From: Escherichia phage SDYTW1-F1-2-2_3
DNA length: 64,000 nt
Sequence record: OR296290.1
Strand: one strand, 5' to 3'
The notes beneath the pieces were generated by a model. That model was not told where the DNA came from. It made no database searches and worked only from the letters and a program-made list of their open reading frames with translations. Shown here in pieces: positions 2,845-41,082 of the stretch. Positions within the stretch are counted from its first letter, which is position 1. The number at the start of each line of letters is the position of its first letter. A program made the position numbers and the translations under genes.

Positions 2845-2916
2845 AACTCTCTCCTGTAAAATACAAATTCTTATTGTACTCTATATACATTTGAGAGTTA
2901 CCATATCTACTACCAA

Positions 2917-3126
2917 TCAGTAGTAAATTACTTTAGACATAAAAGAACCCGAGTTAGGGTCTTCGTACCAGCGATGTATATCAGCGCTTTTTACTATTGT
3001 GCCCAGAGTCTTCAACTGTTTCTTAGCAATACGAGCCTCTTTGCGAGTGTCAAACAATTTGATGCTATCTTTTCTCGTGTGTTGATCAAGATCCCAAACA
3101 ACACGAATCGCCCACATCTTTTTCAT
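2917..3126 (-). CDS. small protein, VYY-tail paralog family (copy 2)
   Basis: 69 aa, ends VIYY; tandem with next two copies. Confidence 0.5.
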   Translation of the reverse strand: MKKMWAIRVVWDLDQHTRKDSIKLFDTRKEARIAKKQLKTLGTIVKSADIHRWYEDPNSGSFMSKVIYY

Positions 3127-3335
3127 TAGTAATGTACCTTTCCGCTGATATAAACACGACCAGAAGAATACTCCTTGGCCTTATGGATACTGATACTGTT
3201 GACCACGTCACCAGTAAGCATAGTCTTTTTAAAATCTCGAGCCTGTTGACGAGTAGGAAGTGCAGTCATAGTCATACCACCTGATGCCCACTTAATCTTT
3301 GCTAACCAAAACTGTCTCATAGTGATTGGTCTCAT
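3126..3335 (-). CDS. small protein, VYY-tail paralog family (copy 3)
   Basis: 69 aa, ends KVHY; stop/start abut neighbours. Confidence 0.5.
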   Translation of the reverse strand: MRPITMRQFWLAKIKWASGGMTMTALPTRQQARDFKKTMLTGDVVNSISIHKAKEYSSGRVYISGKVHY

Positions 3336-3735: not shown

Positions 3736-4269
3736 TTACACACCTTTAGATGCAACCACACCTTCAGAATTATTATAACGGCCTTTCACTGCATAGGAAT
3801 GTTCCCCTGCATGAGAGTGCTCAAACATAACCATCTGACCGACACGCATACCAGCACGAACTCGTAAGCTGTGGTGTTTGGTTACATTGTGGAATTCAAA
3901 CGTCAGCTTACTGCTGTTAAATCCTGCATCTGCCCATCCGGCGTGAAGGTGGTTCAAACCACAACGAGCCATAGACGAACGCAGAACAAACAGACTTGAG
4001 ATGTTATCTGGAAGATTAAACTCCTCCATGGAGTGAGCCAAGAAGAACTGACCCGGAGTGATAACCAAACCCTCTTCAGGAATCTTTACTTCCTTCCACT
4101 GAAGATTCTCTTTCGCATCAATATCAACGATGCCATCAGCCTGTTCTTCAACAAGGATAGTATCACCAATACGGATATCCACACTAGCAGCGTTAACATA
4201 CTTATGCTCCGCATCCAGATAGCCATTATCAATTACATCGTGCAGTTCAACACTTCCTAGTAAACTCAT
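3736..4269 (-). CDS. dCTP deaminase/dUTPase-fold protein
   Basis: RSSMARCGL...AGWADAGFNSSKLTFEFHN resembles dCTP deaminase signature. Confidence 0.65.
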   Translation of the reverse strand: MSLLGSVELHDVIDNGYLDAEHKYVNAASVDIRIGDTILVEEQADGIVDIDAKENLQWKEVKIPEEGLVITPGQFFLAHSMEEFNLPDNISSLFVLRSSMARCGLNHLHAGWADAGFNSSKLTFEFHNVTKHHSLRVRAGMRVGQMVMFEHSHAGEHSYAVKGRYNNSEGVVASKGV

Positions 4270-4278
4270 TCTTATTCC

Positions 4279-5577
4279 TTAGTTATTTGTTTCCATGTCA
4301 AAAGAGATTCCACGACCCGCTTCATCGGCAAACCGAACTGTACGGGTTTGAGGCTCTAATACTTCAGGGTTGTTAGCAACAAACCGATCAGCGAGATTGC
4401 GGCTGACGGTCTCAGCTAATTCACCATGAGAAGGGACGTCAAGATCACCAACAGCGAAACCCTGACCAGAGAACTGGTGACGGCTGACAGTCAAACCATT
4501 TGATTGACCATTAGAACGTCTAGACAACCACCGCTCAAATGAATCGCCAGTAACACCAAGAGCTTCTTCAAAAGATGTTCTACGAGTAGAGCTTAGATTT
4601 CGTGCTTCGTTTGCTCGACGTCTTGCAGGGGCTACAAACACCCCTTCAACTGCATTGTGTCGGTTAGGTTCATCTTCCCGACCAAGGAGATCTCCTCCTG
4701 TATTGGTTGTTAAGTTTGTTAACCCTTCAGACCAATACGCACGAATCTGACTAGAGCCATTAACACTTGACATTAACTGAATCTCTTCGTAAGGGATTCC
4801 AAAGAATCGACTCATGTCTTGGTCAACACAATATTGAGGACTTGCTGTGTCGCCAATAAGAGATACTTGACCTTGACTATTAACCAGATCCCTGACCATT
4901 TGAGGTATAGGTTGTTGCCGAGCATGTGCCATATAATGAAAAGCAACTCCCGGGGTTTGGAACCTTAACACTTGTGAGTTAGGCCACTTCTTGTGGACAT
5001 ATTTAATCTCTCGAGCAGTCACAACCACTGGAATTGGAGAAGTCATAGCCAAGTATCCATGAACGGTCATGAATAGCTTATCAAGAGTCATAGCACCACG
5101 ACACATCATAGGAAAATTACCCAATACCTCTTCAATAGAAGTAGGATAATTAAACATGAATTGGATACGAACCCCATTCCACTGAAACTCAATGATATCA
5201 GTGAATGTTAATTGAGAAGTTCCTGTGTATGGCTCATCTGTAGCTTCAGCAAGAAGGGATGAATACTCAATATCTTGTGATTCAAGCCATTCCTTCACGT
5301 TACTTTCAATCTCTCTTCCAAGAGCTTGCCAACGGTCAGTTGGGATGAACATGTTTTGAGTTCTTGGTGTTTGTCCTCTGACAATAAAGATATCAATGTC
5401 ATGTGGAGCTGTGTTATTAAGCACAGCATCACGAACAGCCCCACCAGTAATGAGGGGACAGATACCGTCTGGAACCAAGTTGTTGTTAATCAACTGTTCA
5501 ATGAAATGACGACCAACAGTAATATCAGGTTGTTGAGCAACCTTATCTTCAATTCGGTTAATCGGAATAACAATCAT
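4279..5577 (-). CDS. Pol-beta superfamily nucleotidyltransferase (CCA-adding / poly(A) polymerase-like head)
   Basis: Start set to ATG 5577 (MIVIPIN...), 1 nt after exonuclease stop. Motif GGAVRDAVLNNTAPHDIDIF matches the GGxVRD...DxD NTase signature. Confidence 0.6.
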   Translation of the reverse strand: MIVIPINRIEDKVAQQPDITVGRHFIEQLINNNLVPDGICPLITGGAVRDAVLNNTAPHDIDIFIVRGQTPRTQNMFIPTDRWQALGREIESNVKEWLESQDIEYSSLLAEATDEPYTGTSQLTFTDIIEFQWNGVRIQFMFNYPTSIEEVLGNFPMMCRGAMTLDKLFMTVHGYLAMTSPIPVVVTAREIKYVHKKWPNSQVLRFQTPGVAFHYMAHARQQPIPQMVRDLVNSQGQVSLIGDTASPQYCVDQDMSRFFGIPYEEIQLMSSVNGSSQIRAYWSEGLTNLTTNTGGDLLGREDEPNRHNAVEGVFVAPARRRANEARNLSSTRRTSFEEALGVTGDSFERWLSRRSNGQSNGLTVSRHQFSGQGFAVGDLDVPSHGELAETVSRNLADRFVANNPEVLEPQTRTVRFADEAGRGISFDMETNN

Positions 5578-38638: not shown

Positions 38639-39700
38639 ATGGCTAATCCAACTTTATTTGTATCGTATGACCAGAATGGTAAAAAACTTTCTTTTGCTAA
38701 CTGGATTTCTGTTCTGTCCCCTCAGGATACTCCGTTCGTATCTATGACCGGTAAAGAGTCTATCAACCAGACTATCTTTAGCTGGCAGACCGATGCACTG
38801 GCAAGCGTTGATGGTAATAACGCACACGTCGAAGGCTCTCGTGCTGAAGACGGCGAAATGAAACCGACTGTTATCAAGTCTAACGTTACTCAGATTCTGC
38901 GTAAGGTTGTTCGTGTTTCTGACACTGCTAACACCACCGCTAACTACGGTCGTGGTCGTGAACTGATGTATCAGCTGGAGAAGAAAGGTAAAGAGATCAA
39001 GCGTGACCTCGAGAAAATCCTTCTGTCCGGTCAGGCTCGTACCGACGTTTTGGCTGACCAGTATCTGACTAACTCCGCAGCCGATCCGACTCAGATTGGT
39101 AAGAACGACACCCATGCAGCTCGTAAGACTGGTGCATTCCAGTTCCTGTGTGCTCACGGCGGTCTGACTGGTGGCGTTGTTGACAAAACCAAGAATGGTC
39201 CTGCTGACCCAGATACCGGTGCTGTAACTGTTAAAGTTGCACAGAACGCTTCTAACCCGGCTACTAACATCGGCTTCGATGAAGCAGATATCTTTGATAT
39301 GACTCTGCAACTGTACACCGCTGGTTCTGAAGCAGATATCATCATGATTAACCCGGCTCATGCTAAGATCTTCGCTGGCCTGCAAGAAAATACTCAGGGT
39401 TCACGTAAGCGTATCTTTGAGAACACCAAGCAGTTCATCTACGAAGTTAACAGCATCACTGACCCGCTGGGCCAGAGCTACAAAATCATCGTTAACCGTT
39501 GGATGCCTACTGATGCAGTTTACTTCTTCCGTAGCGCTGACTGGACCCAGATGGTTCTGCGTGCTCCGAAACGTACTGAACTGGCAAAAGATGGTTCTTA
39601 CGAGAAGTGGATGATTGAGATGGAAGTTGGTCTGCGTCACCGCAACCCGTATGCTTCCGGTGTTCTGTTCACTGCTGCGGGAAAGGCAGTAGCGGCGTAA
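38639..39700 (+). CDS. major capsid protein
   Basis: 353 aa after scaffold, strong GGAG SD, codon usage typical of a highly expressed gene; terminator after the downstream Ig ORF. Confidence 0.7.
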   Translation: MANPTLFVSYDQNGKKLSFANWISVLSPQDTPFVSMTGKESINQTIFSWQTDALASVDGNNAHVEGSRAEDGEMKPTVIKSNVTQILRKVVRVSDTANTTANYGRGRELMYQLEKKGKEIKRDLEKILLSGQARTDVLADQYLTNSAADPTQIGKNDTHAARKTGAFQFLCAHGGLTGGVVDKTKNGPADPDTGAVTVKVAQNASNPATNIGFDEADIFDMTLQLYTAGSEADIIMINPAHAKIFAGLQENTQGSRKRIFENTKQFIYEVNSITDPLGQSYKIIVNRWMPTDAVYFFRSADWTQMVLRAPKRTELAKDGSYEKWMIEMEVGLRHRNPYASGVLFTAAGKAVAA

Positions 39701-40227
39701 CAGTAGATACCATAACTGTTAGTCCTTCGTCGGTTGCAAGCCTTCCGACGGGGGCTACTCAGCAGTTTACAGCTACAGCACAAATGAGTGATAGCTCCAC
39801 ATCAACAACTGGATTTGTTTGGTCCGTTGAGGGTGGTGGGGCTATTTCTGTTTCTGGACTGTACACTGCACCGAGTGCGTCGCAAGAAACCCCGATTACA
39901 GTGAAAGCTACTAAAGGTGGTAAATCCGGTACATCTACGATCTCAGCTATTGCTGACCCTGAACCTACCCTTGTTAGCCGAGGTCCGATTTCAGGGAAGG
40001 TGGGTGGATCAACAACCGCATTCTCTACTATGTTTACAGCAACAAACTCTACCGGAAGTGACTATACTTTTGAGGTAACTCCTCCGGAAGCGGGAACTGT
40101 TAGTGCAGCTGGTCTTTTGACTCTTGCTGATACTGCTATGGGTGCAGTCTCTGTTGCAGCTACACACGAGACTAAACCTCTTGTAACAGCCACTTGTGAA
40201 TTCACAGGTGTAACACCTGCTGCTTAA
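39679..40227 (+). CDS. -1 frame Ig-like (Big_2) extension of capsid protein, reached by putative programmed frameshift
   Basis: Slippery heptamer G_GGA_AAG at 39679-39685; -1 frame open from there to 40227 and encodes VTVDTITVSPSSVASLPTGATQQFTATAQ... Ig-like repeats. Confidence 0.55.
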   Translation, partial: GKGSSGVTVDTITVSPSSVASLPTGATQQFTATAQMSDSSTSTTGFVWSVEGGGAISVSGLYTAPSASQETPITVKATKGGKSGTSTISAIADPEPTLVSRGPISGKVGGSTTAFSTMFTATNSTGSDYTFEVTPPEAGTVSAAGLLTLADTAMGAVSVAATHETKPLVTATCEFTGVTPAA

Positions 40228-40234
40228 AATTAGA

Positions 40235-40259
40235 CCCTGCCTTCGGGCGGGGTTTTTTT
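40235..40259 (+). terminator. intrinsic terminator after capsid/Ig ORF
   Basis: CCCTGCCttcgGGCGGGG then TTTTTTT. Confidence 0.7.
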
Positions 40260-40329
40260 CGTTTTAAGACCTATACAAGCTAGTGTGTAATGTATATTCT
40301 TTGTCTACATATAACAAGGAGGACAACCT

Positions 40330-41082
40330 ATGGCGATGCCTGAAGTGCAAAACCCGACTAACACGTATGGCTGGCTTAAGAAAGCTGTTGCCTTGTGGGC
40401 CGATCGAGACGATGATGAATTTGTTAATCAAATTCCAAACTTTATTAACTTTGCAGAGAAAGAGATTTATCGTAACTTACGTATCCCTCCTCTGGAAAAA
40501 GAAGTGTATTTAGATATTAAAGATGGAGTAGCTTATATTCCTCCTGATTACTTAGAAGCTCAATGGATGATGAGAGCCAAAGACGGAACAATCTTCCAAG
40601 TAACATCTCCTGAGGAGATTAGCTATCGTAGACAGCATGGAACAATTAACCCATCTCACTGGAACAACCAACCTGTTAACTTTGCTCGTTTCGGTAGTCG
40701 TTTCATTTTCTACCCTAGAATCGAAGCAGACACTCCTGTTTACCCTGATGATGGAAGTCCTTTGATTCCAGCAGAAAACTCAGTAATTCTTAGCTATTAT
40801 GCAGATCCACCGGAATTTCATGAAGATGAAGATACTAGTGCAATCCTCACTATCGCACCAGAGCTTCTTCTGTATTTTACTCTACGTCATGCTTGCTTGT
40901 TTGTTCAAGATGATAACGGAGTTCAGAAATGGTCAGCATTAGGAAAAGCTATCCTTGATGAAATGGTAGAGCAGAATAAGAAGCAAGAGTACTCAGGTTC
41001 ACCTATCGCAATTCCGAATAACATGACTCGACTTCAGAGCAGCTTGCCTGATATTTATGGTATTCGTACTTCTCGTGTATAA
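40330..41082 (+). CDS. virion structural protein (putative)
   Basis: 250 aa, AAGGAGG SD, preceded by TAATGTATA motif and terminator. Confidence 0.5.
   Translation: MAMPEVQNPTNTYGWLKKAVALWADRDDDEFVNQIPNFINFAEKEIYRNLRIPPLEKEVYLDIKDGVAYIPPDYLEAQWMMRAKDGTIFQVTSPEEISYRRQHGTINPSHWNNQPVNFARFGSRFIFYPRIEADTPVYPDDGSPLIPAENSVILSYYADPPEFHEDEDTSAILTIAPELLLYFTLRHACLFVQDDNGVQKWSALGKAILDEMVEQNKKQEYSGSPIAIPNNMTRLQSSLPDIYGIRTSRV

Follow-up and report, generated by a model that had tools for sequence, protein, structure and literature searches.

The stretch of DNA analysed here (the window) comprises 64,000 nucleotides (nt) from Escherichia phage SDYTW1-F1-2-2_3 (OR296290.1) and carries, on the plus strand, a gene for the major capsid protein (MCP; 38639–39700), which starts at ATG 38639 and encodes a zero-frame short product of 353 residues (38.8 kDa). 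The 3′ end of this gene contains a slippery heptamer, G_GGA_AAG (39679–39685, plus strand), and overlaps an open reading frame (ORF) in the −1 frame that encodes immunoglobulin (Ig)-like domains and ends at 40227. The MCP was assigned to the Pfam family SU10_MCP (PF17236, E = 6.9e-77) and matched the major head protein of phage SU10 (PDB 7z45) with 774 bits, and its gene is preceded by a Shine-Dalgarno sequence with a duplex energy of −6.5 kcal/mol. A −1 ribosomal frameshift at the heptamer very probably yields a minority of Ig-tailed MCP subunits. Such a fusion had been put forward as probable in a preliminary description of this DNA, and is supported at the sequence and comparative level by the register of the heptamer, the open −1 frame, the properties of the presumed ATG, the coding signature, conservation and in-frame fusions in related phages.

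The last codons of the MCP gene read ACT GCT GCG GGA AAG GCA GTA GCG GCG TAA, which places the heptamer directly in the X_XXY_YYZ register of the MCP frame, 13 nt before the TAA stop codon at 39698–39700. Heptamer and stop codon had both been located correctly in the preliminary description, and the register was right. The −1 frame has a stop codon just before 39619 and is then open through the heptamer to TAA 40225–40227, and the ORF listed at 39784–40227 belongs to this same frame. The frame had been described as open from the heptamer through that ORF, which was confirmed, with the addition that it opens upstream of the heptamer, at 39619. Across the heptamer it encodes ...CCGKGSSGVTVDTITVSPSSVASLPTGATQQFTATAQMSDSS..., and the shift must fall between the MCP stretch in which the −1 frame is already open (39619–39684, plus strand) and the TAA. 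Taken alone, the motif is unremarkable, since GGGAAAG occurs nine times in the window against 7.1 copies expected. In-frame heptamers of the type XXXYYYZ occur at 0.0024 per codon, which corresponds to a chance of about 6% of finding one in the 79-nt overlap; among the 36 present in window ORFs of at least 150 residues, that of the MCP gene is alone in opening a long −1 frame (180 residues, compared with at most 30 for the others). It is also the sole canonical in-frame heptamer within the last 150 nt of the MCP gene, overlap included.

The −1-frame extension (39685–40227, plus strand), joined to MCP residues 1–349, has exactly 180 codons followed by TAA, in agreement with the length of about 180 residues first suggested, and the predicted MCP–Ig fusion has 529 residues and a mass of 56.0 kDa. 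The extension consists of a short Gly/Ser linker followed by two Ig-like domains. Domain 1 (39703–39942, plus strand; extension residues ~7–86) was recognized by Pfam Big_2 (PF02368), which matched residues 7–79 of the −1 product, counted from 39685, with 30.8 bits against a cut-off of 22.8. Its start at ~39703 lies 27 codons before the annotated ATG 39784, which is extension residue 34, and the Ig repeats do therefore begin upstream of the ATG of the listed ORF, as had been stated. Domain 2 (39967–40215, plus strand; residues ~95–177), as delimited in an AlphaFold model, is a divergent Big_2-like domain, which alone remained below the Pfam Big_2 threshold (16.4 bits, E = 0.009). The Ig-like repeats described at the outset correspond to two Ig-like domains, the first of which passes as Big_2 in Pfam and the second of which does not. 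The AlphaFold prediction from the single sequence, without alignment, was unusable, with a predicted local distance difference test score (pLDDT) of 45.6. An alignment of 26 homologues was used instead, and this yielded a model of two β-sandwich domains with a pLDDT of 95.9. In Foldseek, this model was closest to the two tandem Big_2 domains of Leptospira LigA (8gyr, E = 8.6e-11). A PDB profile search with the extension gave weak matches only, in which the tail tube protein of T5 was hit in its Ig domain. The extension further matched phrog_13745 (E = 1.8e-75).

GGGAAAG was found in register, 16–19 nt before the stop codon, in 13/13 loci of Kuravirus and Suseptimavirus that had been retrieved by MCP similarity, with −1 extensions spanning 178 to more than 404 residues and DNA identities of 87–98%. 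The heptamer is fixed in these relatives while neighbouring synonymous sites change. Their extension always opens with a Gly/Ser linker, which starts right at the heptamer and is conserved, and with a conserved VTVD-x-x-TVSP strand, after which the number of Ig modules varies. The window Ig ORF is 62–94% identical to those of the closer relatives, and the alignment places it under purifying selection. A metagenome scan for TTCACNGCTGCGGGAAAGG returned 80 loci, 10 of which encode the capsid protein; the other 70 had no tblastn match to the capsid and were taken as chance occurrences. The 10 capsid loci were excluded from the heptamer conservation count, having been found with a pattern that contains the heptamer. 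Four Grimontviridae phages, pSal-SNUABM-01, BUCT695, PKM.Hi.22.6 and GAP52, instead carry two tandem MCP genes, the second of which runs on without a change of frame into Big_2 domains, as identified with Pfam, and is thereby extended by 366 to more than 635 residues. These in-frame fusions of SU10_MCP and Big_2 show that a covalent MCP–Ig protein is the selected product in this capsid family, for which duplication is an alternative to frameshifting.

Variation by codon position was assessed in an alignment of 20 distinct relatives (21 segments minus SU10). In the stretch 39619–39684, the variable columns at MCP codon positions 1, 2 and 3 numbered 1, 0 and 7 of 20. It is the third positions of the MCP frame that vary here, so the −1 frame is not coding upstream of the heptamer. 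Between the MCP stop codon and ATG 39784 (39701–39783, 83 nt), the variable columns were 7/27, 4/28 and 20/28 by −1-frame codon position, a pattern similar to that downstream of the ATG (5/19, 4/18 and 15/18). By this signature, the 83 nt behave as coding sequence of the −1 frame, just as the remainder of the Ig ORF does.

This signature bears on the first rival explanation, namely that the Ig ORF is a separate gene which starts at ATG 39784 (39784–39786, plus strand), the codon assigned by gene callers to a separate 'Ig domain protein', and which encodes a free decoration protein of 147 residues that binds the capsid non-covalently. Such a separate gene is annotated in most database records, and the SU10 structure paper regarded the corresponding gp10 as a possible minor capsid protein that is lost on purification (PMC9509320). 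Within the −1 frame, the 55 open codons that lie between the upstream stop codon and ATG 39784 include no possible start (ATG, GTG or TTG). ATG 39784 itself lacks a Shine-Dalgarno sequence (anti-Shine-Dalgarno duplex of +1.2 kcal/mol), whereas the portal, scaffold, capsid, adaptor and fibre genes have duplexes of −6.5 to −11.4 kcal/mol. In the AlphaFold model, strands 7–13, 25–27 and 29–34 of the first β-sandwich precede Met34, so that a product initiated there would miss three strands. The position of Met34 is taken by Lys in phiEco32-type genomes and by Leu in TH42- and EK010-type genomes, and gene callers choose at least six different starts for the homologous ORF across relatives. These four points, together with the coding behaviour of the preceding 83 nt, make five lines of evidence against an independent Ig gene. 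ATG 39784 is probably just an internal Met codon, and we regard a free decoration protein as very unlikely.

Equally improbable, in our estimation, is that the extension is made by another route, which would be a shift elsewhere in 39619–39700, reinitiation at a non-canonical codon just past TAA 39698, or transcriptional slippage. Because 79 nt of open −1 frame precede the stop codon, the sequence alone does not fix the exact shift site; an equivalent −1 Ig ORF exists in five distant relatives (L009–L012 and L023) that lack the canonical heptamer, and phiEco32-type genomes have a GTG or ATG 12 nt past the MCP stop codon. Against this route stand the invariance of the heptamer across relatives and its being the only canonical candidate at the end of the gene, the conserved Gly/Ser linker that begins exactly there, and the lack of any ATG, GTG or TTG in the −1 frame of the window before 39784. 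Transcriptional slippage was rejected because the A-run comprises only 3 nt, which is far too short for slippage of the polymerase. A chance or relic origin of heptamer and open −1 frame, with the Ig ORF silent here as apparently in the SU10 laboratory stock, is scarcely credible, given that the chance of about 6% for the heptamer and the viability of SU10 without the extension are set against an intact −1 ORF of 180 codons, purifying selection, a confident model of the extension and an invariant heptamer in 13 independent relatives.

With a −1 frameshift at the heptamer as the preferred reading, most ribosomes would stop at TAA 39698 and release the 353-residue MCP with the HK97 fold. A minority would slip back one base on G_GGA_AAG, with tRNA-Gly re-pairing from GGA to GGG and tRNA-Lys from AAG to AAA, and would then read the −1 frame to 40227, which would give the 529-residue MCP with its Gly/Ser linker and two Ig-like (Big_2-type) domains. 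The long subunits would be built into the prolate head together with the short ones, with the Ig domains exposed at the head surface. We infer from the sequence the slip itself, its rate, the incorporation into heads and the surface exposure. The rate would be a few percent, which is a guess by analogy with lambda G/GT (~3.5%) and T7/T3 gene 10 (~10%), both values as quoted in PMC9965538. The SU10 head contains 715 MCP copies (PMC9509320), and a slip rate of this order would correspondingly place tens of long copies in each head. The Ig domains probably mediate weak adhesion to surface carbohydrates, a conjecture taken from the literature.

Downstream of the heptamer, 39686–39760 was predicted to fold at −28.3 kcal/mol (z = −3.35, 0/200 shuffles) into two hairpins closed by an outer helix. 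Candidate stimulatory hairpin 1 (39694–39724, plus strand; GGC-G-UAACAGU / loop / ACUGUUA-GUC; −7.1 kcal/mol, z = −2.3) starts 8 nt past the heptamer, or 5 nt in phiEco32-type genomes, and contains the MCP stop codon in its 5′ arm. Across 17 sequences, its stem columns are invariant or still pair (98.8% of cells paired), whereas every codon of the loop is variable. Hairpin 2 (39725–39753, plus strand; −12.4 kcal/mol, z = −2.5) has core pairs between 39729–39733 and 39745–39749 and shows compensatory changes at two pairs, with counts of UA 8 / GC 6 / AU 3 and of GC 10 / UG 6. These changes link a synonymous site, the third position of a Ser codon, with a non-synonymous one, position 2 of a variable P/E/Q/L codon, and protein constraint alone does not easily explain them. 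Only the core of hairpin 2 is supported, and it lies at least 40 nt from the heptamer. Sequence inspection revealed no Shine-Dalgarno-like motif upstream of the heptamer, and a search of Rfam with 39500–40400 returned nothing meaningful.

A further hairpin carries the heptamer in its loop (39672–39695, plus strand; CUGCUGC-GGGAAAG-GCAGUAG), as described for SU10, and 39665–39705 folds at −15.7 kcal/mol (z = −2.95). It had been proposed for SU10 in 2014, but shows no covariation and would have been melted by a ribosome positioned on the site, and it was rejected as the stimulator. Complementary pentamers were also observed near the slip site, namely CUGUU at 39665–39669 and 39716–39720, AACAG at 39699–39703 and GCAGU at 39763–39767 (ACAGU in some relatives). 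They permit three mutually exclusive helices, which correspond to the hairpin with the slip site in its loop, the stop-codon hairpin and a long hairpin enclosing 39725–39753, and could be either a conformational switch or a by-product of repeated V-T-V / T-V-S coding.

Several observations weigh against an Ig-tailed capsid subunit produced and stimulated in this manner. Neither cryo-electron microscopy (cryo-EM) nor sodium dodecyl sulphate–polyacrylamide gel electrophoresis (SDS-PAGE) of SU10 shows a long isoform (PMC9509320, PMC9965538), and the mass-spectrometry table for SU10 is no proof of the junction, since coverage of the fusion is no more than that of gp9 alone. Some independent initiation may occur in phiEco32-type genomes at the GTG or ATG past the stop codon, where the window has ATA. 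As for the RNA, hairpin 1, which is nearest to the heptamer, shows no compensatory changes in the 17 sequences, and the flanking arms are paired differently in the structure favoured by RNAalifold. RNA structure downstream of 39685, which had been suggested as a point to check, was predicted here and is a candidate stimulator only.

The SU10 results deserve closer attention. Its cryo-EM map showed no extra density, and gp10 was treated as a separate protein (PMC9509320), while the paper on phage YF01 noted a premature −1 stop codon in SU10 (PMC9965538). This stop was confirmed in the SU10 record (L003, KM044272.1), whose −1 frame is closed after 11 codons. The cause lies in SU10 positions 2596–2630 (equivalent to window 39698–39721), which differ from CHD5UKE1 of the same species by three substitutions and a private 1-nt insertion. 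These changes turn an imperfect hairpin into a perfect 11-bp palindrome, GUAACAGUAGAC-ac-GUCUACUGUUA (−26.4 vs −15.4 kcal/mol), and look like a single quasi-palindrome-templated mutation. The SU10 Ig ORF now lies in the zero frame of the capsid gene, behind TAA and TAG. A mutation of this kind would explain why a long capsid isoform is absent from the cryo-EM and SDS-PAGE data, and it shows that loss of the extension is compatible with viability. The 2014 mass-spectrometry table is compatible with this loss: gp9 is listed with 78.1% coverage (23 peptides) and '9+10' with 50.29% (22 peptides) (PMC4281155); the two entries cover about equal numbers of residues, and possibly none of the peptides derives from gp10. 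Trypsin would cut exactly at the junction Lys, so the tryptic SU10 data could not have shown a junction peptide; for the window protein, the expected chymotryptic junction peptide is TAAGKGSSGVTVDTITVSPSSVASLPTGATQQF. Overall, the evidence for a long isoform in SU10 is ambiguous, with PMC4281155 and PMC9509320 pointing in opposite directions.

The frameshift is already known from related phages, and its detection here is a correct rediscovery. Mirzaei et al. 2014 (PMC4281155) reported for SU10 that GGGAAAG within CDS9 joins this gene to the Ig-like CDS10, 'as in phage phiEco32', and short and extended MCP isoforms generated via this heptamer were described for YF01 'and other group phages' (PMC9965538). 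For phiEco32 itself, the frameshift is published by citation, in that both papers refer to Savalia 2008. In Proteus phage Privateer, the capsid forms were detected as two SDS-PAGE bands and by mass spectrometry (PMC7881722), and its record annotates a joined coding sequence (CDS) with a note of mass-spectrometry support. The statement in the preliminary description that frameshift-appended Ig domains on phage capsids are known elsewhere thus agrees with publications on SU10, YF01 and Privateer. The window shares with the long isoforms of Kuravirus/Gordonclarkvirinae (phiEco32, SU10 gp9+gp10 and YF01 gp8) the SU10_MCP capsid, the position of GGGAAAG relative to the stop codon, the Big_2 extension and the terminator. 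The extension measures 180 residues in the window and in NJ01, 178 in phiEco32 and 271–545 in others, with 892 residues for the full long isoform of YF01, and the window linker is 3 nt longer than that of phiEco32. Privateer (Grimontviridae) has an MCP of the same family (57% identity), the same G_GGA_AAG −1 shift and a two-Ig-domain extension, but differs in that the heptamer abuts the stop codon (G GGA AAG TAA) and in that the first appended domain is I-set-like rather than Big_2.

Other systems are more remote. T7/T3 gene 10A/10B likewise employs a −1 shift near the 3′ end of the major capsid gene, and a minor, C-terminally extended subunit co-assembles. This likeness is one of mechanism only and not of membership, as the T7/T3 capsid protein is of a different sequence family and carries a shorter extension. 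The slippery sequence of T7/T3 gene 10 presumably also differs from that of the window. The lambda G/GT heptamer is reportedly identical, G_GGA_AAG, but the product is a tail assembly chaperone and not a capsid subunit, and the lambda fusion product is not found in the virion. The duplicated MCP of Grimontviridae (Salmonella 7-11 group: pSal-SNUABM-01, BUCT695, GAP52 and PKM.Hi.22.6) resembles the window system in providing a short MCP and a long MCP with C-terminal Big_2 domains. It differs in using two tandem genes and not recoding, so that the ratio of both forms would follow the expression of two genes and not the efficiency of slipping.

The distant relatives without a canonical heptamer at the end of the capsid gene comprise IMG/VR contigs of 82–97 kb (L009–L012, ~3905–4430) and Aeromonas phage 4_4572 (L023, ~2905–3190). 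Their capsid gene ends in CUG AAG GUA AAG GCG/CCC UAA, and the slip site is likely the non-canonical G_GUA_AAG, as judged from the sequence. The −1 ORF, which encodes two Big_2 domains or one I-set Ig domain, begins within the overlap and lacks a start codon close to the domain boundary; the record of Aeromonas phage 4_4572 lists it separately, as a hypothetical protein. In L009–L011, the candidate slip site is followed by a small GC hairpin, GCGCCC-cuac-GGGCGU. Two further loci carry tandem capsid paralogues, three in an IMG/VR contig of 124.9 kb (L014, 413–3931) and two in L013 (3001–4962), and the third copy of the former has A_AAA_AAG 10 nt before the stop codon, with a −1 extension of 42 codons.

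A minority of Ig-tailed MCP seems to be reached along three routes, which are the canonical G_GGA_AAG shift, the non-canonical G_GUA_AAG shift, and MCP duplication with in-frame fusion. We tentatively advance, as a possibility to which we would give somewhat less than even weight, that these routes are interchangeable ways for the capsid family to obtain such subunits and that a structured RNA 3′ of the heptamer, hitherto undescribed, sets the frameshift rate in Kuravirus. This RNA may consist of the hairpins at 39694–39724 and 39725–39753 and possibly of a closing helix between 39688–39693 and 39754–39759, which would create a three-way junction of the IS911 kind.

The main practical value of the analysis lies in annotation, for which a ribosomal-slippage join (38639..39685, 39685..40227) suits this genome. 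Instead of a joined CDS, most inspected records of the phage group, nearest relatives included, either list the 'Ig domain protein' separately and without its N-terminal part, or have no entry at this place. Ig-tailed capsid subunits are believed to promote the adhesion of phages to host or mucosal glycans, and the number of appended Ig domains varies widely (extensions of 178 to at least 545 residues), which makes the extension a plausible variable adhesion module in phages that are now used against pathogenic E. coli. Nothing here is new in principle; the by-products are the correct annotation, the remark on proteomic tests, a candidate RNA element, an explanation for SU10 and the non-canonical variants in distant relatives.

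The window derives from a coliphage of the genus Kuravirus that resembles phiEco32 and NJ01. The 1.7 kb around the frameshift site are 97.7% identical at the DNA level to Escherichia phages XT18 and XT73, 95.8% to NJ01 and 87% to phiEco32 and SU10, all of which are Kuravirus podophages with prolate heads. The value of 97.7% was the best DNA match among the records found, none of which is identical to the window genome. The gene order, with portal (35023), a small ORF, scaffold (37512), MCP (38639–39700), Ig ORF and an adaptor/virion structural protein (40330), matches that of NJ01 and SU10. An intrinsic terminator (40232–40265, plus strand) follows the extension, as previously noted for 40235–40259, and consists of a 10-bp stem at 40232–40255 with six GC pairs and a loop of four, followed by a T-run; a terminator is annotated at the equivalent place in the SU10 record. 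A sigma-70-like promoter match (40201–40230; TTCACA, 18 nt, TAAAAT; 10/12) overlaps the end of the Ig ORF and precedes the terminator, and is a consensus match only, such sites being fewer than in shuffled sequences. In XT18, an HNH endonuclease is annotated after the Ig ORF and the terminator (L108, 2030–2300), where the window directly has the adaptor/virion structural gene, and this endonuclease gene is probably a mobile insertion.

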